This document shows, one piece after another, positions 4,837 to 46,516 of a stretch of DNA of 49,297 nt. Position 1 is the first letter of the stretch; each line of letters starts with the position of its first letter. A program made the position numbers and the translations under genes. The DNA is from Minisyncoccia bacterium. GTDB lineage: Bacteria > Patescibacteriota > Minisyncoccia > 2-02-FULL-40-12 > IGHO2-01-FULL-4-A. Location of the stretch: the NCBI GenBank assembly GCA_050015375.1, contig JBEKBN010000007.1, positions 1 through 49,297 on the forward strand, in the 5' to 3' direction. A model generated the notes under the pieces. That model saw nothing but the letters and a program-made list of their open reading frames with translations, was not told the origin of the DNA and searched no databases.

Positions 4837-6031
4837 TAAAAATTATGTCATTGGTTTGGTCATCATCGCGGTTCTAGTCGGATTCGCCGGCGGTTTTTAT
4901 TACCAGCAATCGAAGATAATATTGCCGGTTAACATTCCGGTTCTTAATCAAACCATCGGCAAACCGCAAGGTGTGGATTTCAGCATGTTCTGGGACACAT
5001 GGAATTTAATTCATCAGAAATATGTTGATAGCGGGAATCTCAACACCCAAACCATGATCTACGGCGCCATAGATGGCATGGTCAAATCAGTCGGCGATCC
5101 TTATACCGTATTTTTTCAACCTGCGGAGTCGAAAGCATTTGCCGAAGACATCAATGGTTCGTTTTCCGGTATCGGTATCGAGATCGGCATCCGCAACGAT
5201 CTATTGACCGTCATCGCGCCCATCAACGGCACGCCGGCCGACAAGGCGGGAATAATGTCGGGCGATGTCATCTCCAAGGTCGGCGACAAGACAACTGATG
5301 GCATGACGACCGATGATGCCGTTAATCTGATCCGAGGCGCGAAGGGAACGCCGGTGAAATTGACGATCGTCCGCGGCGAGCAGAAAACAGTCAAAGAATT
5401 CACCATCATCCGCGACACTATCAAAACGCCGACTGTTTCCTGGAAATTGATCAACGGGAACATTGCCTATGTCCAATTGTATGTTTTTGATAGCAATGTT
5501 GACGCCGATTTCCAAAAAGCGGCCGACGAGATCGTTAAATCAAAAGCCGACCGGATAATCCTTGATGTCAGAAATAATCCCGGTGGGTTGCTTGATTCTT
5601 CAGTGGATATCGCCAGTTATTTCATGGACCCGAATTTGATCGTTGTCAGAGAAAAGTTCGTTGACGGCCATGAAGAGGACTATCGTTCGCAAGCTAATGG
5701 TTTGTTGAAAAAATATCCGTTGATAATCATCACCAACCAAGGTTCGGCATCGGCATCCGAGATATTGACCGGCGCCATCAAAGACAACCGCCATGCGATC
5801 ATTGTCGGTGAAAAGACATTCGGAAAAGGCGTGGTTCAGGAAGTTGATCCGCTTGCCGGCGGCGCGTCGGTCAAGATAACTATTGCCAAGTGGTATACGC
5901 CCAGCGGTGTTTCCATCAATACCGATGGTATCACGCCTGACGTTCCGGTCACTCGAACCGAGGATGACATCAACGCCAATAAAGATCCGCAATTGGACAA
6001 GGCGGAGGAGTTGATACAGAATTTAAAATAA
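4826..6031 (+). CDS. S41 family C-terminal processing peptidase with PDZ domain
   Basis: GIGIEIG..PINGTPADKAGIMSGDVISKV (PDZ), ILDVRNNPGGLL, NQGSASASEILTGAIKD..GEKTFGKG. Overlaps the GT2 gene by 11 nt. Confidence 0.9.
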   Translation: MLNNKNYVIGLVIIAVLVGFAGGFYYQQSKIILPVNIPVLNQTIGKPQGVDFSMFWDTWNLIHQKYVDSGNLNTQTMIYGAIDGMVKSVGDPYTVFFQPAESKAFAEDINGSFSGIGIEIGIRNDLLTVIAPINGTPADKAGIMSGDVISKVGDKTTDGMTTDDAVNLIRGAKGTPVKLTIVRGEQKTVKEFTIIRDTIKTPTVSWKLINGNIAYVQLYVFDSNVDADFQKAADEIVKSKADRIILDVRNNPGGLLDSSVDIASYFMDPNLIVVREKFVDGHEEDYRSQANGLLKKYPLIIITNQGSASASEILTGAIKDNRHAIIVGEKTFGKGVVQEVDPLAGGASVKITIAKWYTPSGVSINTDGITPDVPVTRTEDDINANKDPQLDKAEELIQNLK

Positions 6032-6034
6032 GCA

Positions 6035-6250
6035 AATGTCCGAGAGAGCGAGTGTAATCACGATGCTCGATTGGAAACAGTTGTTTACCCAGCCCTATCT
6101 GGAATCATAGTTATATGTTTCAGATAGATTGAAGACGCAGTCGCCTTACGGTTCTAGTAGTATGTAAGATCAAACTGTGAGCCCAGATAGGGCTGGGTCA
6201 TGAATTGTTTCCTGTTCGCCGCGATATTAATCTAGCTCACAGACAATTCT
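6035..6250 (+). repeat. type-C rod-like intercistronic cassette, copy C1 (expanded apical part)
   Basis: Starts AATGTCCGAGAGAGCGAG 3 nt after the ctp stop and ends CTAGCTCACAGACAATTCT directly before the rplI ATG. Inner inverted repeats are GGAAACAG/AATTGTTTCC and acccagccctatctgg (6087-6102)/ccagatagggctgggt (6183-6198). Confidence 0.75.
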
Positions 6251-6697
6251 ATGAAAGTCATTTTCCTCAAAAATATTAAAAACGTTGCCCAGATCGGGGA
6301 CATTAAAGAAGTGGCCGACGGTTACGCCCGAAATTTTTTATTGAAAAATGGCGTGGCCAAAGTAGCGACGGCCGATTCGGCGAAACAAGCCGAAACATTG
6401 AAAATATTGCGCGTTGAATTCGACGTCAAAACCAAGGAGAAGGGGATAGAACTTGCCAAAAAAATGGAAAATGCCGTTATAGAGATAAACGGCGACGCCA
6501 ACGAGCAAGGTCATCTTTACGGTTCGATCGATGCCAAAAGGATCGCCGACAAGATCAACAACAAATATCATCTTGGCATTTCGGAAGACAACATAAATTT
6601 GCCCCAGCATCTCAAAGCAACAGGAGAGCATGAAGTCGAAATAGAGTTCCACCCCGAAGTCAAAACAAAAATGAAAGTTATTGTGACCTCTGTCTGA
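6251..6697 (+). CDS. rplI: 50S ribosomal protein L9
   Basis: MKVIFLKNIKNVAQIGDIKEVADGYARNFLLKNGVA is the canonical L9 N-terminus. Confidence 0.95.
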   Translation: MKVIFLKNIKNVAQIGDIKEVADGYARNFLLKNGVAKVATADSAKQAETLKILRVEFDVKTKEKGIELAKKMENAVIEINGDANEQGHLYGSIDAKRIADKINNKYHLGISEDNINLPQHLKATGEHEVEIEFHPEVKTKMKVIVTSV

Positions 6698-7639: not shown

Positions 7640-7848
7640 GGCTAATCCCAAGCGAGTCTCCTCAATCCCTGCGAACCCCGGTTGCTTCGGGCACGCTCAA
7701 AAGAGTGGATTGCACGGTTTGCGAGCAATATAATGGATAAAACACTGCGAGCAAAATCCACGCTTTTGAGCGAACAAGAAATCTCGCTGGGATTTCGAGT
7801 AGTGACCCAAAGGGACCGAGGGTGAGCCTGGTTGGGGATTGAGGGGGC
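7640..7848 (+). repeat. type-A structured repeat (GCACGG junction, TATAAT loop, TCGCTGGG-loop hairpin)
   Basis: Outer arms cctcaatccc (7660-7669)/gggattgagg (7835-7844). Helix cgctcaaaagagtggatt/aatccacgcttttgagcg. GCACGG at 7712-7717, TATAAT at 7729-7734, TCGCTGGG at 7784-7791. Ends 3 nt from the rpmA stop. Confidence 0.8.
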
Positions 7849-9921: not shown

Positions 9922-10425
9922 ATGGCATCAGACGAAAAACTCCCAGGGGACTACGTAGCGGGTTTTATCGATGGCGAGGGTTGTTTTTATCTTACTTATA
10001 GAAGTGAAAAAAAATACAGCCGAAAGGGCAGCCCAACCTATTATCGTTGGCTTCCATATTTTGCAATGACTTTAAGATTGGACGACATAGAAATTCTTCA
10101 TAAAATAAGAAATACACTTGGATGCGGAAATGTCTACAAATTAAGAAATAACAGTAAATGGGGGAGTCAAGCTTACTTTGGAATCCAAAATATAGACGAC
10201 CTTTATAACAAAATAATTCCGTTTTTTAAAAAATATCAACTCCGAGCAAAAAAAAGATTTGATTTCGAATTATGGTGTTCGGCTCTAAATATTTTACACG
10301 CGAACAAAATTCAAAAAAAATCGTGCTCTTTGAATGAAAACATGTTACTCAATAAAATAAGATTTAAAATGCGGATTTATAAAAGTGAGTTGAATAGGGG
10401 ATACAAGAACAACCCACAAGAATAA
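9922..10425 (+). CDS. free-standing single-motif LAGLIDADG homing endonuclease
   Basis: YVAGFIDGEGCFYL is the LAGLIDADG motif. At 167 aa it fits I-CreI-like homodimeric enzymes. No flanking intron or rRNA context. Confidence 0.85.
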   Translation: MASDEKLPGDYVAGFIDGEGCFYLTYRSEKKYSRKGSPTYYRWLPYFAMTLRLDDIEILHKIRNTLGCGNVYKLRNNSKWGSQAYFGIQNIDDLYNKIIPFFKKYQLRAKKRFDFELWCSALNILHANKIQKKSCSLNENMLLNKIRFKMRIYKSELNRGYKNNPQE

Positions 10426-12265: not shown

Positions 12266-13686
12266 TCCAATTTTTTTATCGCTGTTTTTATTCTTTTTAT
12301 GGCTTCTTCTTTTCCGATGACAAATAAAATTTCCAGTGGATCGGCTGAATATTTTTCTCCGCTCAATGCCACTCGCAACGGCCAATAGACCGCTCCCCTG
12401 TCGCCGTGAAATATTTCCTCGGCTATGTTGTCCAAAATGTTTTTTGTTGTTTCTTTGTCGGTTTCGAGATCTTCTAGCTCTTCAAGTATCTTTTCTAATG
12501 CTTTTTTCGCCCCACTTTTATCGGACTTCTTCCAAGTCAACAATTCCGTTTCGTATTCCGGCGCTTTGAAAAAGTAGTGATAATCCCCTACCTGATCCAG
12601 ATACTCAAGTCGCTCGCGAAAAATGGGAGCCATTTTCATAATTAATTCGTCATCAACGATCCCAAAATGTTTTTTAACGAATGGCAAAACAAGTTTGCAG
12701 ATGCCGGCATCATTTTCCATCTTTAAATATTGGGAATTGAGCCAGTTTAATTTTTTAATATCAAAAACCGCGCCGGATTTGTGGATTTTTTCCAGTTTGA
12801 ATTGTTCAATGATCTCGTTCTTGGTCAGCATTTCTTTTGTCGAATCATCCGGCGTCCAGCCAAGAAGCGCCAGAAAGTTCACCAAAGCGTCCGGTAAATA
12901 ACCAAGAGCGCGATATTCGGCCACCGAAGTCACGCCGTCGCGTTTAGACATTTTCGAACGGTCTGTTCCGAGAATCAGCGGCAAATGAGCAAATTTTGCC
13001 GGTGTCCAACTAAGCGTTTCATAAATTAAAATCTGTTTGGGCGTGTTAGCAATATGATCCTCGCCACGGATGACATGGCTGATTTCCATCATATGGTCGT
13101 CAATTACGACGGCAAAGTTATACAACGGCTCGTTGATATTTTTGGCAATGCTGAAATCCCCGAGCAATTTTTCCTCGAATTCTATTTTCCCCTTGATAAT
13201 ATCTTCAAAAACGATTTTTCTGCTTGAATTGGTATCAACCTTTAATCGAATTATCCCTTCCCCGTGATTCATGATTCGTGATTCATGATTCTTGTGCTCG
13301 CACATATGTCTTGGCGGTTCTTTTTTCTCCATCTGTTCTTTCTGCTCCGCTTCTAGTTCTTCTTTCGTGTGGTAACACCAAAACGCCTTGTCTTCGTCCA
13401 TGAGTTTCTGGATGTATTTCGTATAATATTTTGTCCGCTCGCTTTGGTGGTAGAGCTCGTCCCATTTCAAACCAAGCCATTCAAAGCCCTCGATGATGTC
13501 TTTCTCGTATTCTTTTGTCGAGCGTTCGGTGTCGGTGTCTTCAATTCTGAGAATGTATTGCCCACCCGACATGTGTCGCGCGAAAAGCCAGTTGAAAAGC
13601 GCCGTTCGCGCCGTGCCGATATGCAAAAAACCAGTAGGACTTGGCGCCATCCGAACTCGAATCTTCTCAATTTTGACTTTGGTCAT
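12262..13686 (-). CDS. gltX: glutamate--tRNA ligase
   Basis: RMAPSPTGFLHIGTARTALFNWLFA (HIGH) and KMSKRDG (KMSKS). Confidence 0.95.
   Translation of the reverse strand: MTKVKIEKIRVRMAPSPTGFLHIGTARTALFNWLFARHMSGGQYILRIEDTDTERSTKEYEKDIIEGFEWLGLKWDELYHQSERTKYYTKYIQKLMDEDKAFWCYHTKEELEAEQKEQMEKKEPPRHMCEHKNHESRIMNHGEGIIRLKVDTNSSRKIVFEDIIKGKIEFEEKLLGDFSIAKNINEPLYNFAVVIDDHMMEISHVIRGEDHIANTPKQILIYETLSWTPAKFAHLPLILGTDRSKMSKRDGVTSVAEYRALGYLPDALVNFLALLGWTPDDSTKEMLTKNEIIEQFKLEKIHKSGAVFDIKKLNWLNSQYLKMENDAGICKLVLPFVKKHFGIVDDELIMKMAPIFRERLEYLDQVGDYHYFFKAPEYETELLTWKKSDKSGAKKALEKILEELEDLETDKETTKNILDNIAEEIFHGDRGAVYWPLRVALSGEKYSADPLEILFVIGKEEAIKRIKTAIKKLE
13266..13293 (+). repeat. GATTCNT heptamer tract (4 units) inside gltX
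   Basis: gattcat gattcgt gattcat gattctt, read on the coding (minus) strand as KNHESRIMNH. Confidence 0.8.
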
Positions 13687-16729: not shown

Positions 16730-17600
16730 CGGTAAAATTATTTTTTTCGGCACATCTGAATTCGCCGTGCCGGCGCTGGAAGCGTTTTTTAACGCTGGCT
16801 ATGAAATTGGCGCCGTTATCACCACGCCCGATGAACCGGTCGGACGAAAACAAATTTTAACGCCTTCACCGGTTAAGTTTTGCGCCGAAAAACTAGGATT
16901 AAAAATTTTACAACCCCAAAAATTAGATTCCGAATTTTTAAAAATTCTTCAAACTACCAACCACAAACTACCAACTACTCTCGGTATCGTCGCCTCCTAC
17001 GGCAAAATAATTCCCAAAGAAATCATTGATTCGTTTCCGCTTGGCATCCTCAATATTCATCCGTCTCTTTTGCCGAAATATCGCGGGCCGTCGCCGATCC
17101 AGACCCAGATTTTGAACGGCGAGACGGAAATTGGAGTGACGATAATCAAAATTGACGAACTGGTGGATCACGGACCAATTGTCGCTGAACAAGAATCAAG
17201 AATCATGAATCATGAATTGTTTGAAGATGCGCAAAATAAATTATCCCGAATCGGAACCAACCTCCTGGTCAAAATATTGCCCGATTATATTTCCGGAAAA
17301 ATAAAACCGATTGAACAAAATCACGATCTGGCATCCTTCACAAAAAAGACATCCAAAGAAGATGGCAAAATCGACTGGAACAAACCGGCTGAACAAATTT
17401 ATGATCAATTTCGGGCTTTTCACAAATGGCCGGGAGTTTGGACGATTTGGAAAAACAAAATTTTGAAGATCACGGATCTGCGCGTTCAAAACGGCAAGAT
17501 TGAGATCCTCCGTCTTCAACTCGAAGGCGGAAAAGAGATGTCTTTGAAAGAATTTGTCGCCGGCCACAAAGATTTTATTGTCGGCAAACTCGGCCGGTGA
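16719..17600 (+). CDS. fmt: methionyl-tRNA formyltransferase
   Basis: IIFFGTSEFAVP..., NIHPSLLPKYRGPSPIQ. Overlaps def as in the usual def-fmt operon. Confidence 0.95.
   Translation: MKSNGKIIFFGTSEFAVPALEAFFNAGYEIGAVITTPDEPVGRKQILTPSPVKFCAEKLGLKILQPQKLDSEFLKILQTTNHKLPTTLGIVASYGKIIPKEIIDSFPLGILNIHPSLLPKYRGPSPIQTQILNGETEIGVTIIKIDELVDHGPIVAEQESRIMNHELFEDAQNKLSRIGTNLLVKILPDYISGKIKPIEQNHDLASFTKKTSKEDGKIDWNKPAEQIYDQFRAFHKWPGVWTIWKNKILKITDLRVQNGKIEILRLQLEGGKEMSLKEFVAGHKDFIVGKLGR
17191..17218 (-). repeat. heptamer tract (4 units, inverse orientation) inside fmt
   Basis: aagaatc aagaatc atgaatc atgaatt, read in frame as QESRIMNHEL. Confidence 0.8.
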
Positions 17601-17612
17601 TATAATATTCTT

Positions 17613-18356
17613 ATGCAGGAAGAAAATGTTCTCGAAGTTCAAAATCTGTCCGTTGAGTTCAACGGCGGTTTGATCTTGGATAATTTGAATTTTTCGGTGA
17701 GGCGCGGGGAAGTTCTTGCTATCGTCGGTCCCAACGGCGCCGGAAAAACCGTTTTGTTCCGTTCGCTTCTTGATCTTATCCCCTACTCCGGCGAAATAGA
17801 TTGGAAGCCCGGGATCCGAATCGGTTATGTCCCGCAAAAATTATCCATTGAGCATAATTTTCCCTTGACGGTCAGGGAATTTTTGGAAATCAAATCTGCC
17901 GCTGGAGTTCGCTATTCCCATCACGATATTTTTCAAGCGCTGGAGTCGGTCGGCATCAAAACCGGCACCGACGAGAAACATCATCTTGAACATCACATTC
18001 TGAACCGGCCTTTGGGCAAACTTTCCGGCGGCGAACTTCAGCGGATCCTTATCGCTTGGTCAATGATCGGCAAACCCGATGTTTTGCTTTTTGACGAACC
18101 CACGGCTGGCATTGATGCCGGGGGCGAGGAAACCATTTATCAACTTCTCCACAAACTCCAAATGAGCGCGACGCTTACGATCTTAATGATCTCGCACGAT
18201 CTGAATATCGTTTATAAATATACCGACAATGTTCTTTGCCTGAATAAAAAAATGCTGGCTTTTGGAAGACCGAAAACCATTTTAAGCCAAGAAGGATTGG
18301 CGTCGCTTTATGGCGGCGAGACCGAAATAATCCGCCACGACCACGGTTACAATTAA
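17613..18356 (+). CDS. metal (Zn/Mn-type) ABC transporter ATP-binding protein
   Basis: GPNGAGKT, LSGGELQR, LLFDEP. Resembles ZnuC/MntB-type ATPases. Confidence 0.85.
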   Translation: MQEENVLEVQNLSVEFNGGLILDNLNFSVRRGEVLAIVGPNGAGKTVLFRSLLDLIPYSGEIDWKPGIRIGYVPQKLSIEHNFPLTVREFLEIKSAAGVRYSHHDIFQALESVGIKTGTDEKHHLEHHILNRPLGKLSGGELQRILIAWSMIGKPDVLLFDEPTAGIDAGGEETIYQLLHKLQMSATLTILMISHDLNIVYKYTDNVLCLNKKMLAFGRPKTILSQEGLASLYGGETEIIRHDHGYN

Positions 18357-18392
18357 TTCGTATATTCGTAAAAATTCGTAATTTCGTAGTAA
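18355..18392 (+). repeat. 38-nt ATTCGTA-repeat block, copy 1
   Basis: aattcgtatattcgtaaaaattcgtaatttcgtagtaa fills the stop-to-start gap. 37/38 identical to 35834..35871. Confidence 0.85.
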
Positions 18393-18393
18393 T

Positions 18394-19158
18394 ATGAATT
18401 ATCTCCAAATCATCACTGGAATTTTTGTCGGGATCGCTTCCGGTTATTTAGGTTCGTTCATGGTCCTGCGGCGGATGGCGTTGGTTGGCGATGCGTTGTC
18501 TCATGTGGCTTTGCCGGGTTTGGCGCTGGCTCTGCTTTTCAACATCAATCCTTTCATCGGCGCTTTCGCGGCATTGTTCGTCGGTATCGTCATCGTTTGG
18601 TTCATTGAAAATCGGACCCATCTGCCGACCGAATCTCTCATTGGACTATTTTTCACTTTTTCTCTCGCCGTCGGTATTTTGATCACTCCTCGGGCGGAAC
18701 TGCTTGAGGCGCTGTTTGGCGATATTTCAAAGATCGCGGTTATGGACGCTATTCTTGCGGTTGTATTGTCCGTTTTAATAATGGTCGTTATGCGCGCAAT
18801 TTCGAAAAAATTCACCTTGAGCACGCTTTCCACCGATTTGGCCAGCTCCGTCGGAATAAATGTCTCACGACTTAATTTTATATTTTTAATAATGGTGGCG
18901 GTTATCGTCGCTCTGGGCATTAAGGCCGTCGGCACTTTGCTCACCGGCGCGCTGGTCATTATTCCCGCCATATCCGCGCGAAATATCACTTCGAGTTTGG
19001 GCGCCTATACTGTTGGCAGCGCGATCTTTGGACTTTTGAGCTTGCTTGGCGGGATATTCATTTCTTCATATTTCAACCTCGCCCCGGGTCCGATAATCGT
19101 TTTGACCAGTTCTGTCATTTTTCTGGTTTCATTCGTTTTGAGCAACAAAAATTCTTGA
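18394..19158 (+). CDS. metal ABC transporter permease (ABC-3/ZnuB family)
   Basis: Multi-pass membrane protein with GDALSHVALPGLALA, typical of the ABC-3 family. Confidence 0.85.
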   Translation: MNYLQIITGIFVGIASGYLGSFMVLRRMALVGDALSHVALPGLALALLFNINPFIGAFAALFVGIVIVWFIENRTHLPTESLIGLFFTFSLAVGILITPRAELLEALFGDISKIAVMDAILAVVLSVLIMVVMRAISKKFTLSTLSTDLASSVGINVSRLNFIFLIMVAVIVALGIKAVGTLLTGALVIIPAISARNITSSLGAYTVGSAIFGLLSLLGGIFISSYFNLAPGPIIVLTSSVIFLVSFVLSNKNS

Positions 19159-19224
19159 CCGGCTTAATTTTGCATTTTCCGGATATTTTTGTTATTCTTC
19201 GGTTAACCGTTTAATTATTTCTAT

Positions 19225-19794
19225 ATGATCGGACCGAATGAATTAAAACCCGGCGTCTATTTTATTTACGAAGGCCAGCCCTACGAGGTCACCGAAACCC
19301 ATCATCTTAAGATGCAACAGCGCCGGCCGGTGGTTCAGACGAAGATGAGAAATGTGCTCAACGGCAAGACGCTGGAGCGCAACATGGCCCAGTCGGACAT
19401 GTTCGAGGAGGCCGATATTCAGAAAAAATCGGTGAAGTTTTTGTACGCTCACCGCGAAGAATATTGGTTTTCTGAAATTGACGACCCTTCAAAAAGATTC
19501 AAACTTGACGCCGGCATCATCGGCGAGCAGACCAAGTTTCTGAAATCCAATACTCCGGTTGAAGCCGTTACCTTCAACGACAAAATAATCAATGTTTCAT
19601 TGCCGATTAAAATGCAATTCAAGGTCACCGAAGCGCCGCCGGGAATTCGCGGAGATACGGCCCAGGGCGGAGTTAAAACAGTTAAAATCGAAACCGGCGC
19701 CTCGGTAAACGTGCCGTTATTCGTGAATCAAGACGACGCAATTATTGTAAATACTCAAACGGGAGAGTATGTGGAAAGAGCGACCAAGGGCTAA
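19225..19794 (+). CDS. efp: elongation factor P
   Basis: GQPYEVTETHHLKMQQRRPVVQTKMRNVLNGKTLE and the three-domain length. Confidence 0.93.
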   Translation: MIGPNELKPGVYFIYEGQPYEVTETHHLKMQQRRPVVQTKMRNVLNGKTLERNMAQSDMFEEADIQKKSVKFLYAHREEYWFSEIDDPSKRFKLDAGIIGEQTKFLKSNTPVEAVTFNDKIINVSLPIKMQFKVTEAPPGIRGDTAQGGVKTVKIETGASVNVPLFVNQDDAIIVNTQTGEYVERATKG

Positions 19795-22352: not shown

Positions 22353-22556
22353 AGTAAGCTGGCGGTTGTTGTCTTGAGGGCGCTCATTTCTGTGAGCCCG
22401 AAGGCTTGGAGGGCGTGATTGCATGGCCTGGCAACATGAGAAAATGGTAAAATATTTCCTGCCATTTTCTCGTGTTGCCAGAATCCACAGAAATGAGCGA
22501 GCCGGAATTCTCGCTGGGAATTCCGGCGTCCCGAGAGATAATAGCTGCCAGCTAAA
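22353..22556 (+). repeat. type-A structured repeat filling the dnaK-dnaJ gap
   Basis: Outer arms agctggc/gccagct. Helix cgctcatttctgtg/cacagaaatgagcg. GCATGG at 22421-22426. Hairpin cctggcaacatgagaaaatgg/ccattttctcgtgttgccag. TCGCTGGG at 22511-22518, closed by ggaattc/gaattcc. Confidence 0.8.
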
Positions 22557-24448: not shown

Positions 24449-24458
24449 GATGATTTAT

Positions 24459-24622
24459 AAGCGAGCGGATGTTATTTCTAGGGCGCTCATTTCTGTGCGA
24501 TTGCACGGTTGGCGAGCAGTATAATGTCGGCGTAAGCCACTGCGAGCCAAATCCACAGAAATGAGCGAGTCGATTTCCTCGCTGGGGAAATTGACATCCC
24601 ATGAAATAACATCAGCGAGCTT
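24459..24622 (+). repeat. type-A structured repeat filling the grpE-dnaK gap
   Basis: Arms aagcgagcggatgttatttc/gaaataacatcagcgagctt. GCACGG at 24503-24508, TATAAT at 24520-24525, TCGCTGGG at 24579-24586. Confidence 0.8.
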
Positions 24623-24627
24623 GTTAA

Positions 24628-31395: not shown

Positions 31396-31543
31396 AGCTC
31401 GCCAATATGGCTTTTGCGGACTTAGGAAATCCCAGCGAGATTTCCGTCATCCGGTTGTCGGATGCCGTTGTCGTTTTTTGATTACAAAAACCGAACCGTG
31501 CCAACGGCACCGACAACGGCCGCCCGAGCCATATTGGTGAGCT
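31396..31543 (-). repeat. type-A structured repeat (family sense on minus strand)
   Basis: Arms agctcgccaatatgg/ccatattggtgagct. CCCAGCGA at 31431-31438 and CCGTGC at 31496-31501. The reverse complement closely matches 42121-42225. Confidence 0.75.
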
Positions 31544-32910: not shown

Positions 32911-33135
32911 TATTTTTGACTTTCAATAATAATCCGGCGACTAGGCGAGGCGATTGTCTTTCTGGGCACGCTCAAAAGAGTGGATTGCATGGTTTGCGAG
33001 CAGTATAATGGACAAGACACTGCGAGCAAAATCCACGCTTTTGAGCGAACGAGAAATCTCGCTGGGATTTCGCGTGGTGACAAGAGAGATAATCGCCGAA
33101 GCTAGCCGGAGATTAAAAATGGAAAGTCAAAAATA
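32911..33135 (+). repeat. type-A structured repeat downstream of rplU
   Basis: Outer arms tatttttgactttc (32911-32924)/gaaagtcaaaaata (33122-33135) and ggcgattgtctt/gagataatcgcc. The core is about 94% identical to 7690-7810. GCATGG at 32987-32992, TATAAT at 33004-33009, TCGCTGGG at 33059-33066. Confidence 0.8.
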
Positions 33136-33978: not shown

Positions 33979-34223
33979 TGGGCAGCGCCAACCGGATTTG
34001 AACCGGTGTTACGTGGATGAGAACCACGCGTCTCCCGATTTGTCTGTGAATAGCTCAGAAACAAATCGAGAATCCTCGATTTTCATCAAATTTTTTAGCA
34101 CCGCCACCGGGATTCGAACCCGGGTTGCGTGGATGAGAACCACGTGTCCTAGACCAGGCTAGACGATAGCGGCATTAAAAAACTTGTGAAAATCAGGACT
34201 GGACCAGGCTAGACGATGGCGCC
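33979..34223 (-). pseudogene. tRNA-Glu(CUC) gene interrupted in the D arm by a 166-nt insertion
   Basis: 5' piece 34199-34223 is GGCGCCATCGTCTAGCCTGGTCCAG. 3' piece 33979-34032 is GACGCGTGG-TTCTCAT-CCACG-TAAC-ACCGGTTCAAATCCGGT-TGGCGCT-G-CCA. The acceptor halves pair (GGCGCCA/TGGCGCT) and joining the pieces restores the D stem. Confidence 0.7.
34099..34173 (-). tRNA. tRNA-Glu (anticodon CUC)
   Basis: GCCGCTA-TC-GTCTAGCCTGGTCTAGGAC-A-CGTGG-TTCTCAT-CCACG-CAAC-CCGGGTTCGAATCCCGG-TGGCGGT-G. Cloverleaf is complete; CCA is not encoded. Confidence 0.85.
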
Positions 34224-34289: not shown

Positions 34290-34528
34290 ATCGACTCGCC
34301 GTTCGTGGCGTCTGTTGTCTCGAGGGCGCTCATTTCTGTGAGCCCGAAACTCCGGAATCTTGAGGATGAGGGCGTGATTGCATGGTCTGGAAACATCGGA
34401 AAGTTGTATAATATTTTCCTACAACTTTCCGATGTTTCCAGAATCCACAGAAATGAGCGAGACGATTTCCTCGCTGGGAAAATCGACGTCCCGAGAGGCA
34501 AAAGACGCCACGGCCATGCGAGAAATGC
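34290..34528 (+). repeat. type-A structured repeat downstream of murF
   Basis: Arms cgtggcgtct (34304-34313)/agacgccacg (34503-34512). GCATGG at 34380-34385. Hairpin ctggaaacatcggaaagttgta/tacaactttccgatgtttccag with a TATAAT loop (34407-34412). TCGCTGGG at 34471-34478. Confidence 0.8.
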
Positions 34529-35833: not shown

Positions 35834-35871
35834 AATTCGTATATTCGTAAAAATTCGTAACTTCGTAGTAA
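35834..35871 (+). repeat. 38-nt ATTCGTA-repeat block, copy 2
   Basis: aattcgtatattcgtaaaaattcgtaacttcgtagtaa abuts the ftsI stop. An inverted atacgaat at 35812-35819 pairs with 35835-35842. Confidence 0.85.
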
Positions 35872-38070: not shown

Positions 38071-38961
38071 TTAATTCTTTATTACAACCCTCAATTTCGC
38101 GCTTCTTGAATTCGGATTTTGCTTTTTTTCTTCAAGACCGGCAACAACCGGTTTTTTCACGAGCAATGCTACTTCTCCTTTTTTCGCCGCTTCCCGGAAA
38201 ATATTTTTAACGATTCTATCCTCCAGCGAATGAAACGATATCACCGCCACTCTGCCGCCGATCCGAACCGTTTCGATCGCTTTTTTTATGCCGTTCTCGA
38301 CATTTTCCAGCTCGTGATTGACCACGATCCTCAATGCCTGGAAAGTTCTGGTCGCGAAATGAATGTGTCCGGTTCTATATCTGAACGGCACGCCTCTTTT
38401 TATCGCCTCTACCAGTTGAAATGTCGTCTTTATCGGCCGCTGTCTTCTCTCGGCTATGATCTCTCTGGCGATTCCCCGCGAATATCTTTCCTCGCCGTAT
38501 TTGTAGATCAAGTTCGCAATATCTTCTTCGTTATAATTATTTAAAATATCTGCCGCCGTCTCACCTTCTTCATTGTTAAATCTCATGTCGAGAGCTTCGT
38601 CTTTTGAAAATGTGAATCCCCTTTCGCTGTCGGTCAATTGCCATGTGGACATGCCCAGATCGAATAAAATTCCGTCTGTGCTCGTAAAACCGTGACTATT
38701 GGCAATTTTCTCAATATTCACATAGTTATCATTAACCGCGATCAATCTATCTCCAAATTCATGATTCGTGATTCTTGATTCAAGATTCTTGTAAATTTCC
38801 GGGTCCCACTCGATTCCGAGCAACCCGCCGCCCGGCTTTATTTTTTCTAATATCGCCAACGCGTGTCCGCCGCCGTTGATGGTCGCGTCAATAAACTTCT
38901 GTCCGGGCTTAGGATCAAGATATTCAATAACTTCGTTTAAAAGAACCGGCGTATGGATCAT
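38071..38961 (-). CDS. rsmH: 16S rRNA (cytosine1402-N4)-methyltransferase
   Basis: HTPVLLNEVIEYL..DATINGGGHA, SFHSLEDRIVK. Confidence 0.93.
   Translation of the reverse strand: MIHTPVLLNEVIEYLDPKPGQKFIDATINGGGHALAILEKIKPGGGLLGIEWDPEIYKNLESRITNHEFGDRLIAVNDNYVNIEKIANSHGFTSTDGILFDLGMSTWQLTDSERGFTFSKDEALDMRFNNEEGETAADILNNYNEEDIANLIYKYGEERYSRGIAREIIAERRQRPIKTTFQLVEAIKRGVPFRYRTGHIHFATRTFQALRIVVNHELENVENGIKKAIETVRIGGRVAVISFHSLEDRIVKNIFREAAKKGEVALLVKKPVVAGLEEKKQNPNSRSAKLRVVIKN
38756..38790 (+). repeat. GATTCNN heptamer tract (5 units) inside rsmH
   Basis: aattcat gattcgt gattctt gattcaa gattctt, read on the coding strand as NLESRITNHEF. Confidence 0.8.
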
Positions 38962-39392
38962 ATTATTCCCAATTCTCCCAATTTCTCCGCAATTCTGTCT
39001 CCATTTTTCTCAAGATTTGCTTTATAAGCCGCCCATTTTTCTTCATCCCAGATCTCTAATCGGCTATTCAAACCGGCCACTATCACCGATTTCTTTAAAC
39101 CGGCAAAATCTCTCAAATAATCCGGCACCAGCACCCGGCCAAGCTGATCCATCTCGACTTCCGAGGCGCCGGCCAACAATAATCTCACAAATCCTCTTGT
39201 GTCTTGCTGGCCCAACGGCAATTTGCCCAGTTTTTCAGCCAGAATTTCCCACTCTTTCATTGGAAACAGAAAAAGGCAGCTATCTAACCCTCTGGTCAGA
39301 ACCGCCTTCTCGCCGATCTCCTTCCTGAACCTCGCCGGAACCGATAAGCGTTTCTTTGAATCAATCGTATGATGATGCTCGCCAAGTAACAT
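38958..39392 (-). CDS. mraZ: transcriptional regulator MraZ
   Basis: MLLGEHHHTIDSKKRLSVPARFR and a second SpoVT/AbrB-like repeat. Its stop overlaps the rsmH start. Confidence 0.93.
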   Translation of the reverse strand: MLLGEHHHTIDSKKRLSVPARFRKEIGEKAVLTRGLDSCLFLFPMKEWEILAEKLGKLPLGQQDTRGFVRLLLAGASEVEMDQLGRVLVPDYLRDFAGLKKSVIVAGLNSRLEIWDEEKWAAYKANLEKNGDRIAEKLGELGII

Positions 39393-39517
39393 GCGAAATT
39401 GTCCAAGAGCGAAGCGATTGGGTAACAATTTCAGCACCCAGCACATAACGAGTTATGTGCTGGGTAAGAATTTGTTTCCGTGCTCGTTTCGCTACGCTCA
39501 ACTGCGCTCGGACAAAT
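39393..39517 (-). repeat. type-C rod-like cassette, copy C2, abutting the mraZ ATG
   Basis: In gene sense: ATTTGTCCGAGCGCAGTTGAGCG..CACGGAAACAAATTC..ACCCAGCACATAACTCGTTATGTGCTGGGT..TGGACAATTTCGC-ATG. Confidence 0.75.
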
Positions 39518-39680
39518 GTCTTAGTAACTGATAGCTAACAGCCAGTAGTCCCGATGGCTTTCGCCATCGCAGATCCGCGATTTCGTTTTTGCGAAATCGG
39601 GAGATTTAATGGCAAAGAACAATTTTTTTGAAAAATCGCTACTCGCTGTTAACTATCAATTACCCGGCAATTTTTATTAG

Positions 39681-42077: not shown

Positions 42078-42270
42078 GAAAGTGAGCTTGTGAATCTCTG
42101 CGAACCGGGTTGTTTTCAGGGGCCGTTGTCGGTGCCGTTGGCATGGTTCGATTATTGTAATCAATTAATCGACAACGGCAACCGACAACCGGATGACGGA
42201 AATCTCGCTGGGATTTCCTAAGTCCCCGGAAAGCAATCCGGTGAGCCTGGTCCGGGATTCACAAGCGAGC
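42078..42270 (+). repeat. type-A structured repeat
   Basis: Arms gcttgtgaatc (42086-42096)/gattcacaagc (42256-42266). Helix ccgttgtcggtgccgttg/caacggcaaccgacaaccgg. GCATGG at 42141-42146 and TCGCTGGG at 42205-42212. Ends 2 nt from the stop of 42273..42746. Confidence 0.8.
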
Positions 42271-42272
42271 AA

Positions 42273-42746
42273 TTAGAGTCCGAGTTTGTTTATCAGCTTC
42301 TCATGCGGGCCCTCGAACAGCACGCGGATGAACCGGTCAAACATGGCGAAGCGATATTGGAACTCGTCTTTTTCCATGATCGAAAATTTTATTTCCTTCC
42401 CCACTTCCGCTTCCAGCGATTTCAAAAACGGCCTTAATTTTCGGTTTTCAATGTCATCGCCGACAATGAGTAGGTCCACCACCGTCGGGTCGGGGTTCTC
42501 TTTGTTGATGAAGATCCCGGCTACGATCGCCAATTTAATTCTCCCCAGTTTATTTATTCTCTCGATCATATTGTTTTTCTCCGCCGGTGATGATTTCAAT
42601 AACAGATCGCGAAGTTCGTAAAGAAATTCAAAAGAATTGTTGATAACGTATTTCGCTCCCCGAGACGCGTGACTGTTGGCTAAAACTGCCGGAATTTTTC
42701 TTCGGCGGCGGCTAGGATGTTTAACTTTTCTATTTTTCTTTTTCAT
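42273..42746 (-). CDS. distal part of a split wHTH regulator (wing + C-terminal domain)
   Basis: A Lys/Arg-rich start, then AKYVINNSFEFLYELRDLLLKS and a C-terminal alpha/beta region. The ATG sits directly after cassette C3. Confidence 0.6.
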   Translation of the reverse strand: MKKKNRKVKHPSRRRRKIPAVLANSHASRGAKYVINNSFEFLYELRDLLLKSSPAEKNNMIERINKLGRIKLAIVAGIFINKENPDPTVVDLLIVGDDIENRKLRPFLKSLEAEVGKEIKFSIMEKDEFQYRFAMFDRFIRVLFEGPHEKLINKLGL

Positions 42747-42886
42747 AGAATTGTCCGCGAGCTAGACGAAGTCGCAGCGAGCGGGAAACAATTCATGACC
42801 CGCCTAAATATGCGAAGCATAATTTTTGGCGGGTAAATAACTGTTTCCGTGCTCGGCTCACTTCGTTTGCCTGCGCTCGGACATTT
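42747..42886 (-). repeat. type-C rod-like cassette, copy C3, separating two halves of one regulator gene
   Basis: In gene sense: TAA-AT-AAATGTCCGAGCGCAGGC..CACGGAAACAGTT..ACCCGCC..GGCGGGT..GAATTGTTTCCCGCTCGCTGCG..CTAGCTCGCGGACAATTCT-ATG. Confidence 0.8.
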
Positions 42887-42888
42887 AT

Positions 42889-43077
42889 TTATTTCTGTTT
42901 TATCAACCCGATACCGACAAGTTTCTTTATTTCTCTTTTCACGACTTCGGGATCCTCTTGAACATGATCAGCCAGTTCTCGGACATTAAAACTGGCCGGC
43001 GCATTCCGAAAAATATACTTGAGTATTTTGACCCGCAGGTTCGAACCCAGCAGTTCCTCAAGGATTTTTTTTGACAT
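42889..43077 (-). CDS. proximal part of a split wHTH regulator (ArsR-like helix-turn-helix, 62 aa)
   Basis: LLGSNLRVKILKYIFRN..FNVRELADHVQEDPEVVKREIKKLVGIGLI ends right after the recognition helix. Confidence 0.6.
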   Translation of the reverse strand: MSKKILEELLGSNLRVKILKYIFRNAPASFNVRELADHVQEDPEVVKREIKKLVGIGLIKQK

Positions 43078-45509: not shown

Positions 45510-45890
45510 TTATTTGAGTTCAACAGTTCCACCCGCCTCTTCCAATTTTTTCTTCAATTCCTCGGCTTCGTCTTTCTTGGCGCCTTCTTTAACTACGACC
45601 GGAACGGCATCGGTCATATCCTTAGCTTCCTTGAGCCCTTTGCCGGTCGCTTCCCGGATGACTTTTATTACCTGTATCTTCGATTGGCCGGCCTCTTTCA
45701 AAATGACATTGAAAGAATCCTTTTCCTCCACAACACCTTCGCCGGCATCGCTCGCCGTAGCTCCAGCGGCGGCGGGCGCTGATATCATCGCCGCCGAGAT
45801 GCCGAACTTTTCCTCAATGGCTTTGACCAATTCGTTTAGTTCAACGACGGTCATCTTCTCGATTTGTTTGATTATTTCTTCGTTTGACAT
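45510..45890 (-). CDS. rplL: 50S ribosomal protein L7/L12
   Basis: [30 protein letters not shown]...[16 protein letters not shown]. Confidence 0.95.
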
Positions 45891-46037
45891 GCTAGAATTG
45901 TCTGCGAGCTAGCTTGTAAAGCGCAGCGAGTAGATAACAATTCTTGCACCCAGCACATATTTCGTGTTGCGAAATATGTGCTGGGTAAGCGACTGTTTCC
46001 GTGCTCGCTTCGCTTTGCTCAACTGCGCTCGGACATT
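45891..46037 (-). repeat. type-C rod-like cassette, copy C4, between rplJ and rplL
   Basis: In gene sense: AATGTCCGAGCGCAGTTGA(rplJ stop)GCAAAGCGAAGCGAGCACGGAAACAG..ACCCAGCACATATTTCGCAACACGAAATATGTGCTGGGT..GAATTGTTATC..CTAGCTCGCAGACAATTCTAGC-ATG. Confidence 0.8.
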
Positions 46038-46516
46038 CGACTTATTTGACCCAAGACATTCGCCAAACTCGACAGCGGATATTTCAGCAATCCCAGAAAT
46101 CTGGCGATCATCACATCTTTGGTTGGTAATTTGGCAAATTCGATGAGGTCTTTGTTGTCCAGTATTTTATCACCGAATATCGCGCTGAATAATTTCAACG
46201 CCGGGTTCTTCCGGGAAAATTCATAGACCGACTTGGCGGCGGCGGATACTTCTCCGTAACCAAAAACCACGCCCAGAGAGCCGTCATAGCCGAAAATATC
46301 TACTTTTCCATCCAGCGCCTTGTCAAGCAGTGTCTTTTTTTCGACGGCATATTCTGACTCGACGGCCCGCAAACTTCGTTTCAACGCCTGCATGCTTTTG
46401 ACGTTCAAACCCTTTTCCCCCGCTCTTGAAAATGAGGTAAAAACTGTCAATTTCGACTTCGCCAATTTCTCTTTCAACTTGGCTAATTCCTTCTTTTTTT
46501 GTTCGAATGATTTCAT
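46019..46516 (-). CDS. rplJ: 50S ribosomal protein L10
   Basis: MKSFEQKKKELAKLKEKLAKSKLTVFTSF..GLNVKSMQALKRSLR. The last 7 codons and the stop lie inside cassette C4. Confidence 0.9.
   Translation of the reverse strand: MKSFEQKKKELAKLKEKLAKSKLTVFTSFSRAGEKGLNVKSMQALKRSLRAVESEYAVEKKTLLDKALDGKVDIFGYDGSLGVVFGYGEVSAAAKSVYEFSRKNPALKLFSAIFGDKILDNKDLIEFAKLPTKDVMIARFLGLLKYPLSSLANVLGQISRMSERS

Follow-up and report, generated by a model that had tools for sequence, protein, structure and literature searches.

The window analysed here is the whole 49,297-nt stretch (positions 1 to 49,297, forward strand) of contig JBEKBN010000007.1, from the GenBank assembly GCA_050015375.1 of a Minisyncoccia bacterium (Patescibacteriota), an ultra-small and uncultivated organism. 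It carries four copies of a structured intergenic cassette, called type C, which lie directly ahead of the genes for ribosomal protein L9 (rplI), MraZ, ribosomal protein L7/L12 (rplL) and the C-terminal part of a regulator. We label these copies c1 (6035-6250, + strand), c2 (39393-39517, -), c3 (42747-42886, -) and c4 (45891-46037, -). All four had been placed at these coordinates in a preliminary description made from the sequence, and a covariance model run over the 49 kb returns exactly the same four matches, scoring 85-133 bits on the gene-sense strand with an antisense echo of 14-49 bits. The 13-mer TGTCCGAGCGCAG has exactly three occurrences. The sequence motifs first proposed for the cassette are those of c3 and c4; they do not extend to c1, the most diverged of the four, which has AATGTCCGAGAGAGCGAG and ATTGGAAACAG, or to c2, which has a shorter 3′ arm and CGCTCTTGGACAATTTCGC. 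The 5′ boundary also needs to be moved, since the true start lies ~8 nt before the one originally drawn, where a conserved TAA forms base pairs with the TTA preceding ACCC.

The claim of the preliminary description that the cassette ends at the ATG of four genes whose N-termini look native stands. The sequence gacaattct-ATG leads into L9 at 6251, where residues 1-46 align with positions 1-46 of the Pfam L9_N profile, and gacaatttcgc-ATG leads into MraZ at 39392, where the Pfam alignment starts at residue 1. Likewise, gacaattctagc-ATG opens L7/L12 at 45890, and gacaattct-ATG opens the 157-aa regulator part at 42746. Pfam places Ribosomal_L12_N and L10 domains on the called genes at c4. The claims about upstream stop codons hold as well (Table 1): the S41 peptidase gene ctp and a 62-aa winged helix-turn-helix (wHTH) gene end in TAA at the cassette edge, and in the open reading frame (ORF) table rplJ reads into the cassette (...SRMSERS), with the L10 tail MSERS encoded by the cassette itself (46019-46040). 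The upstream context of c2 had to be corrected, as this copy lies in a divergent region and has no co-oriented upstream gene. A mechanical ORF call (38958-39446) over-extends into c2 and makes mraZ 162 aa long, against 144 aa.

Beyond the window, a search with the pattern TGTCCGAG-N18-44-GGAAACARNNNNTTACCC, followed by a profile search of the matched loci, recovered the cassette from one GTDB genome, a "Candidatus Saccharibacteria" metagenome-assembled genome (MAG; L001), and from eleven true metagenomic loci, mostly from groundwater. In total, the family comprises 16 full copies on ~10 metagenomic or MAG contigs, a single copy in decay, and three arms truncated where their contigs end. The elements are 125-290 nt long and non-coding, number 4 in the 49 kb of the window, and are all oriented in the sense of the downstream gene. 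A scan of genome contigs with CCGAGCGCAG-N12-26-CGAGCACGG gave 120 chance matches in high-G+C genomes and zero true copies, and a scan of viral contigs gave no match. No cassette is present at 80 rplL loci of other genomes, 18 of them MAGs from the candidate phyla radiation (CPR). The family is restricted to one clade of Patescibacteria (CPR), and L001 is the single carrier among GTDB representatives.

Abutment to a start codon is a property of the family as a whole. Tabulated over the 16 copies, the start codon directly follows the cassette in 15. At the exception (L009), the cassette ATG opens a 6-codon mini-ORF that overlaps the real, GGGAGG-led HU gene, and thus the ATG there travels with the element. 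Pfam confirms native N-termini for L9, L36, L16, L28, S12, RpoB, RpoC and MraZ. At the other end, a TAA stands 8 nt before TGTCC in 12 of the 16 copies, and is the actual upstream stop in ~10. The cassette separates an S41 peptidase (TAA) from L9, L10 (stopping at a TGA within the first hairpin, H1) from L7/L12, an M50 peptidase (TAG) from S12, S3 (TAA) from L16, RpoB (TAA) from RpoC, a DksA-type protein (TAA) from a ComM-like protein, SecG (TAA) from a family-5 solute-binding protein (two related loci), and the wHTH protein (TAA) from the regulator C-terminal part. A co-oriented upstream ORF is lacking at 6/16 copies (mraZ, rpmB, rpoB, dnaB and the loci L006/L015): no co-oriented gene precedes L28, MraZ, a DnaB-like N-terminus or a bPH membrane protein (two orthologous loci), and RpoB is preceded by a terminator-like hairpin and T-run. 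At L36 the left arm is off the contig.

Each window copy folds far more stably than its shuffles (z = -6.1 to -8.2). Because the long apex of c1 threw a MAFFT alignment of the four untrimmed copies out of register, anchored extraction with an apex-trimmed alignment was used instead. On 13 copies, RNAalifold returns three hairpins (H1, H2 and H3) and no rod. In H1, the 5′ flank TAAnnnnnTGTCCG pairs with CGGAAACAnnnnnTTA. H2 is the hairpin ACCC...GGGT, with an apex of 22 to 158 nt that differs in length and sequence between copies, and in H3 (CAT)GAATTGT..CCGC pairs with GCGG..ACAATTC(t)(ATG). H3 repeats H1 in inverted form (loop ACGAAGT against ACTTCGT), a relationship also seen in the inverted-repeat pairs I5, I13 and I18 and in the antisense echo matches. 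H1 and H3 each fold alone, with H2 as the spacer between them.

The preliminary description had envisaged a three-helix rod in which the two ends of the cassette pair. Its apical hairpin is real, with 7/10 pairs of H2 changed on both sides, whereas the end-to-end helix has 0/10 pairs compensated and the rod-specific pairs barely exceed shuffles, in contrast to the strong covariation of the local H1 and H3. Scored on the apex-trimmed alignment, leaving H2 out, H1 and H3 together have 84.5% of cells paired (shuffles 74.8%), 67 doubly changed cells (shuffles 23.9) and a covariation of 0.320 (shuffles 0.153); the corresponding figures for the rod-specific helices are 78.9% (76.7%), 19 (11.7) and 0.148 (0.124). 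Compensated variants include L001b (GTTGGTTAGTGCCCG / CGGTTGCAATAACCAAC) and L010c (TAAATAGCTGCCCA / TGGCCGCAGATATTTA), and the H3 stem exists as GAATTGT/ACAATTC, GAAATTGT/ACAATTTC and GATATGTGT/ACACATATC. At the orthologous pair L006/L015, whose flanks are 84% identical, the H3 stems differ by compensated changes and H2 measures 158 nt in one and 29 nt in the other. The rod is the global energy minimum in ~11/16 copies, with a margin of only 1-21 kcal/mol over the summed local hairpins; the unit is palindromic and H3 repeats it inverted, so that either fold can form without further constraint. On the evidence of compensatory changes, the fold preserved by evolution is that of three local hairpins, not the rod, and these hairpins are shown to be under selection.

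Several further properties of the fold bear on what the cassette might do. Folded alone, H3 closes on the base preceding the ATG (GC...GC|ATG) in c4 and in two subfamilies, TTTCGC and ATATCGC. The H2 stems reach 18 bp, perfect or nearly so, and the alternative rod ~50 bp, both being long duplexes of the kind cut by RNase III. H1 is more conserved than H3, its unpaired bases strongly so. If the cassette is divided into four segments, the pairings 1:2 plus 3:4 and 2:3 (plus 1:4) are all possible and close in energy. The decayed copy, which stands after the last gene of an operon, has kept H1 and H2 and lost H3. Within H2, the long form (c1 6088-6198; both ends of L008; L009 4480-4590; L013) is a conserved branched structure of ~100 nt with GACG(C/A)AGTCGCCT(T/A)ACGG, and another nested module, GGCGAATAGCC..., lies within H2 of L006, L001b and L010c. 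The H2 apex seems to act as a landing pad for other small modules.

That the cassette might be a mobile element under strong target or selection constraints was among the possibilities first raised, and it is supported by the multiple copies, by the mosaic modules (H2 types and H3 subfamilies occur in differing combinations), by three contig ends that fall inside the repeat, and by empty sites in related DNA. A contig from Hainich groundwater (L224) shares the gene order of the window (rplJ, rplL, an opposite-strand 700-aa gene, the regulator, mraZ and rsmH), with RplL and MraZ both 76% identical. It is free of type C copies, the three shared sites (rplJ-rplL, the junction between the wHTH and C-terminal parts, and mraZ) included. 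Its rplJ-rplL spacer contains an unrelated 20-bp hairpin and an AU-rich leader, and its mraZ has GGAGG and a GTG start. The hairpin of this spacer (L224 6176-6260) is perfect and begins directly after the rplJ stop. The junction between the wHTH and C-terminal parts reads TGATG in L224, ATGA in L223, TAATG in L099/L101 and TAA-TC-ATG in L098, and the two genes overlap by 4 nt and 8 nt in two further records for which there is no DNA. This junction is therefore cassette-free in six related records (L098, L099/L101, L223 and the two without DNA) in addition to L224. Because L224 is cassette-free and the regulator junction is overlapping or adjacent in relatives, c2, c3 and c4 are lineage-specific insertions, c3 having entered a tightly coupled stop/start junction.

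The regulator itself (window 42273-43077, -; a 62-aa wHTH protein and a 157-aa C-terminal domain with a basic tail) is evolutionarily labile in its fission and fusion, and P0002 and P0003 are single proteins of 195-200 aa that combine both parts. Its C-terminal domain has no Pfam match. The idea that c3 had split a gene was rejected, since the relatives already have two genes with an overlapping stop/start and no cassette. At mraZ, the CTAAG of the c2 5′ foot (39515-39523) also occurs in cassette-free leaders (L224 ~10105-10145; L099 ~2030-2058), and despite this the c2 foot can pair with the CTTA of the cassette itself. The match could reflect coincidence, a TAAR site preference or in-situ adaptation.

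With terminal inverted repeats, a small, non-coding and multi-copy form, and both occupied and empty alleles at orthologous sites, the cassette shares features with miniature transposable elements bearing inverted repeats (MITEs), and its two palindromic units, inverted around a spacer, are arranged as in REPINs and BIMEs. Type C is a multi-copy, mobile or at least spreading MITE/REPIN-like DNA element, whose arms are inverted copies of one palindromic unit flanking a variable hairpin. TA stands on both sides of all copies that end in GACAATTC (5/5), and no TA flank is present in the other subfamilies. The start codon and the 5′ NTG of TGTCC were considered as the two halves of a 3-bp ATG target duplication, and this was rejected: the 5′ codon is ATG in 9/16 copies only, and its TG is part of the stem.

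Rfam has no family for the cassette, as at the gathering threshold the search yields two tRNAs only, and at E<=5 it adds nothing on the cassettes beyond generic sub-threshold microRNA-hairpin matches on one H2. A tRNA-like or ribozyme reading was rejected for want of support from ARAGORN or Rfam. The 12-mer GTCCGAGCGCAG of the conserved arm was unmatched in a full-text search of papers, and neither start nor stop codons come up in a review of prokaryotic MITEs from 2024. The ends of the cassette, TGTCCGAG and GACAATTC, are not the RYYYAAC/GTTRRRY of integron attC sites, and its flanks are core genes (rpoB/rpoC, rpsC/rplP, rplJ/rplL). An ermC-type leader peptide was looked for without success, as there is no conserved ORF in the cassette, the frames opened by the 5′ NTG end at different places, and 6/16 copies are without an upstream ORF. 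The sense strand of the four window copies has no promoter-like and no terminator-like site, with no U-run after any hairpin; no sigma-70 promoter was matched, and the cassette tail is without the TGnTAnnnT of the host's leaderless promoters. A promoter within H3 that would drive leaderless transcription was rejected on its spacing, the absence of TGn and of a -35, and the scan results. The gene downstream of a cassette has no Shine-Dalgarno (SD) sequence and no promoter of its own.

The absence of an SD, emphasised in the preliminary description, is true yet less special than it appeared. SD-like motifs are infrequent in the window, preceding only ~8/36 starts, and rplL in other CPR genomes likewise has no SD, only AU-rich leaders. 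At 6/36 starts, against 0.07 expected (P ~1e-10), only 6-7 nt separate the end of an extended -10 (TGnTAnnnT) from the ATG, a spacing that implies leaderless transcripts. CPR genomes retain YchF, a factor linked to leaderless translation, and at least 90% of them retain rnc, rnj and pnp (PMC12641178). In one carrier, a KH and HD protein with the architecture of RNase Y is encoded directly upstream of a cassette. An unrelated rod-like cassette between grpE and dnaK (24449-24627, -) has the grpE TAA in its 5′ foot and the dnaK ATG (24448) directly after its 3′ foot; as it follows the same design, stop-to-start structured spacers may be a general habit of this genome.

The cassette is best explained as a gene junction complete in itself, which is transcribed together with the neighbouring genes and acts in the mRNA. 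More specifically, we infer, as our leading but tentative reading, that it could be an mRNA punctuation module cut by a double-strand RNase. RNase III, which is double-strand-specific, would cut H2 or the alternative long rod. H1 would then remain as a 3′ hairpin shielding the upstream message from 3′ exonuclease, and H3 as a 5′ hairpin blocking the 5′-3′ exonuclease RNase J. The AUG would come to lie at the new 5′ end, or a few nucleotides from it, and could be read by the leaderless-type initiation pathway on which many genes of this organism evidently rely. Almost all CPR genomes retain RNase III, and in every copy H2 is a long and nearly perfect duplex with no constraint on its sequence. 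RNase III-type processing to near-leaderless mRNAs was also among the possibilities first raised, and the leaderless-type promoters common in the window and the nucleases retained in CPR give it context. Punctuation fits both the intercistronic and the 5′-proximal copies, and also the decayed copy at the operon end, where H1 and H2 persist without H3.

A number of points weigh against this reading. We know of no bacterial nuclease that cuts exactly at the 3′ foot of a hairpin, and cuts by RNase III would leave a leader of several to ~15 nt, or all of H3. A start codon set directly against a 5′ hairpin might not be translatable. In the TTCT subfamily the ATG is itself base-paired within H3 (CAT:ATG). 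Two related loci have ATT at the fixed start position, with coding conservation starting directly after it, and ATT would be poorly read by leaderless initiation in model bacteria. On the side of mobility, no consistent target duplication is found across copies, and no transposase is seen nearby, with no such domain in the 16 window ORFs scanned. The sample, finally, consists of 16 copies on fragmentary contigs and is not a genome-wide census.

We also speculate on a more novel reading, in which a portable RNA module specifies the start itself. Initiation would occur at the codon (ATG or ATT) on the 3′ foot of H3, with neither an SD nor upstream translation, through structure-guided entry or through a cut that makes the message leaderless, and its own stop and start signals would let a mobile element spread into essential operon junctions of a streamlined CPR genome. 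We consider the whole of this proposal rather unlikely.

Among the alternatives, the one that survives best is that type C is a selfish MITE that is merely tolerated and serves no function of its own. Its placement would then result from an AT-rich TA preference near start codons combined with purifying selection that removes all insertions blocking expression, and the downstream gene would be translated independently of an SD once a helicase or breathing opens H3. We regard this as possible, though we doubt it. A selfish element would account for the presence/absence polymorphism, the mosaic modules and the breaks in assemblies, and the TA flanks of every copy ending in GACAATTC fit it too; the SD-less, AU-rich leaders of other CPR rplL genes also favour it, and both folds come free with an inverted copy of a palindromic H1. 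However, the other subfamilies have no TA flank, and every copy is strictly oriented. Compensatory changes in H1 and H3, including those at the orthologous locus, also speak against mere tolerance. Further, H3 closes at -1 despite differing termini (TTCT, TTTCGC, ATATCGC), which argues against one transposase footprint, and the conservation of H1 above H3 is not predicted for a symmetric DNA recognition site.

An alternative that we think unlikely is a termination-reinitiation relay, in which a ribosome at the TAA melts H1, and the freed GGAAACA pairs with TTGTTTCC, opens H3 and exposes the start beside the terminating ribosome. In the rod form, stop and start would already be adjacent at the base. 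The relay would restore tight coupling that the insertion had otherwise broken. A coupling or re-initiation device was likewise among the possibilities first raised. The relay agrees with the empty sites, which are overlapping or adjacent stop/start junctions, with the upstream stop in the H1 foot in ~10/16 copies, and with an attenuator-like design of four segments. When the first 16 nt are masked, segments S2 and S3 pair in 13/16 copies and the start region is freed in 10/16. Yet 6/16 copies have no co-oriented upstream ORF ending there, which weakens the reading, and S2:S3 and S1:S4 are almost without covariation; L011, L015 and L001b no longer have these pairings. Moreover, an inverted-repeat design yields the alternative pairing automatically.

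Structure-directed internal initiation, akin to an internal ribosome entry site, is less probable again, and we think it quite improbable. The folded cassette would dock on the ribosome and set the codon at the H3 foot in the P site. This would accommodate a start position that is fixed relative to H3 in all subfamilies, even with ATT, as well as the presence of the cassette in both 5′-proximal and intercistronic contexts and the strong conservation of unpaired H1 bases. Against it, H2 is freely variable, the sequence of H3 is only moderately conserved, there is no conserved tertiary-like motif or Rfam similarity, and we know of no natural bacterial precedent. A signal at the DNA level (promoter, terminator, protein or replication site) is very unlikely indeed: the 3′ tail GACAAT/TAAAAT is vaguely -10-like and L001 has a promoter-like TTGTAA-17-TAATAT just 5′ of its cassette, but the sense strand is without promoter-like or terminator-like matches or U-runs after its hairpins, there is no TGn or -35, only 3 nt separate the tail from the ATG in one subfamily, and orientation tracks the gene, not the chromosome.

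Essential genes (rpoB, rpoC, rplL, rplP, rpsL, rpmJ) here start at an AUG flush with a stable hairpin and have no ribosome-binding site. The cassette thereby offers a concrete and testable entry point to initiation without an SD, and to the processing of mRNA, in CPR. It further demonstrates that a repeat family can colonise a streamlined genome (a typical CPR genome is perhaps 1 Mb) by occupying the exact stop-to-start gap in one orientation and bringing its own stop/start context. There are practical consequences as well. Gene callers over-extend ORFs into cassettes, as at mraZ, or add cassette-encoded tails, as at rplJ, and metagenomic assemblies are broken by cassettes. Should the element prove to work as a junction complete in itself, engineering would gain a compact intercistronic part.

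Other repeats and remnants were observed in the same DNA. A second structured intergenic family is built on a small hairpin with the loop CCCAGCGAG, present in 8 exact copies against 0.28 expected and set within several kinds of long rod-like cassettes (Table 1). Tandem heptamer arrays include an ATTCGTA-type 38-mer found twice at 97% identity (18355-18392 and 35834-35871) and ATGATTC-type arrays at four places in both orientations (1256-1286, 13261-13291, 17188-17218 and 38744-38788). The segment 33982-34032 is 84% identical to the first 51 nt of a tRNA-Glu gene (34098-34173) that lies 116 nt away; it was not called by ARAGORN or Rfam and may be a tRNA remnant. In L224, the DnaB gene (16883-19519) contains an intein with a LAGLIDADG domain.

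Table 1. Positions of cassette hairpins, associated codons and other recurrent features in the window.
Feature	Position	Strand	Description	Basis
c4 H1	45986..46044	-	5′ foot TAAGTCGAATGTCCG, 3′ strand CGGAAACAGTCGCTTA; rplJ frame enters, TGA 46019-46021	RNAalifold, pair counts, ORF table
c4 H2	45948..45985	-	perfect stem CCCAGCACATATTTCG / CGAAATATGTGCTGGG	
c4 H3	45891..45947	-	GCAAGAATTGT...ACAATTCTAGC; last paired base is the nucleotide preceding the rplL ATG	isolated fold, covariation
rplL start ATG	45888..45890	-	immediately 3′ of c4 H3; no SD	
c3 H1	42834..42891	-	opens with TAA 42889-42891, which terminates the wHTH gene (62 aa)	
c3 H2	42798..42833	-		
c3 H3	42747..42797	-	CATGAATTGT pairs with ACAATTC-t-ATG; start codon 42744-42746 within stem	isolated fold
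c2 H1	39465..39523	-	foot TAAGACATTTGTCCG; divergent region, + strand gene from 39609; no co-oriented upstream gene	
c2 H2	39436..39464	-		
c2 H3, short form	39393..39435	-	GCTGAAATTGT...ACAATTTCGC; closes on the base preceding the mraZ ATG 39390-39392	
c1 H1	6029..6087	+	TAA 6029-6031 terminates the S41 peptidase gene (ctp)	
c1 H2	6088..6198	+	branched extension of ~100 nt, also in L008, L009, L013	
c1 H3	6199..6250	+	CAT pairs with the rplI ATG 6251-6253	
Starts with TGnTAnnnT	8183, 9922, 13686(-), 17613, 26035, 27905			
Copies of loop CCCAGCGAG	7783, 22510, 24578, 31431(+), 33058, 34470, 42204, 45462			
Larger units with loop CCCAGCGAG	22355-22550, 24458-24618, 34301-34510, 7689-7806 / 32964-33081, 31397-31521 / 42121-42246			

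In its architecture, the cassette comes nearest to REPINs/BIMEs and to Correia-type MITEs, and in its proposed action to the RNase III sites of T7 and the rplL-rpoB spacer and to structures that follow stop codons. REPINs and BIMEs are doublets of repetitive extragenic palindromes (REPs) mobilised by RAYT transposases. Like the cassette, they consist of inverted imperfect palindromes around a spacer that fold locally or as one long hairpin, and they are extragenic, multi-copy, non-coding and transcribed with their neighbours (PMC3116915, PMC3337134). However, a REP unit is 20-40 nt long and carries GTAG or CGTC as a tag on one of its ends (PMC3733652), whereas the units of the cassette measure ~57 nt, begin TAAR....TGTCCGAG and have no GTAG or CGTC tag at either end (alignment A4). 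The host also differs, being a CPR bacterium, with no RAYT seen on the carrier fragments. Further, every cassette lies in gene sense and has a stop and a start codon as its ends, a property undescribed for REPs.

The Correia (NEMIS) elements of Neisseria and ERIC are MITEs of ~100-150 bp that are co-transcribed and whose inverted repeats pair in RNA, as in the cassette; Correia RNAs are cut by RNase III, ERIC alters RNase E access, and the expression of neighbouring genes changes (PMC2649163, PMC10969869). Correia elements share the TA flanks that we observe at cassette copies ending in GACAATTC. The cassette is unrelated to Correia and ERIC elements in sequence and host, and Correia elements, unlike it, insert both ways and at variable distances and can supply promoters. 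In T7 early mRNA and the E. coli rplL-rpoB spacer, RNase III cuts irregular intercistronic hairpins to release individual messages, on which the remaining hairpin stabilises the 3′ end. The cassette resembles these sites as an irregular hairpin structure between cistrons, in one case ahead of rpoB. Those sites, however, are single hairpins of unique sequence at variable distances from SD-led starts, whereas the cassette is a mobile family in which cleavage is proposed.

Ribosome termination structures are stable hairpins directly after stop codons (PMC7518266), and H1 similarly begins at the stop codon. They are, however, a positional property of ordinary mRNAs, whereas the cassette is a repeated three-hairpin element that includes the next start codon. 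With ermC-type attenuators it shares the alternative 1:2/3:4 and 2:3 pairings and a fourth segment that holds the start site, but it lacks a leader peptide or stalling signal. In mitochondrial tRNA punctuation, the excision of structured RNA between cistrons yields leaderless messages. The cassette is likewise a structured RNA between cistrons, but one without a tRNA-like fold by ARAGORN or Rfam. What is new is the combination of three features in the core operons of one CPR clade: the cassette fills exactly the gap from stop to start, it lies in one orientation, and the start codon stands at a hairpin's foot.

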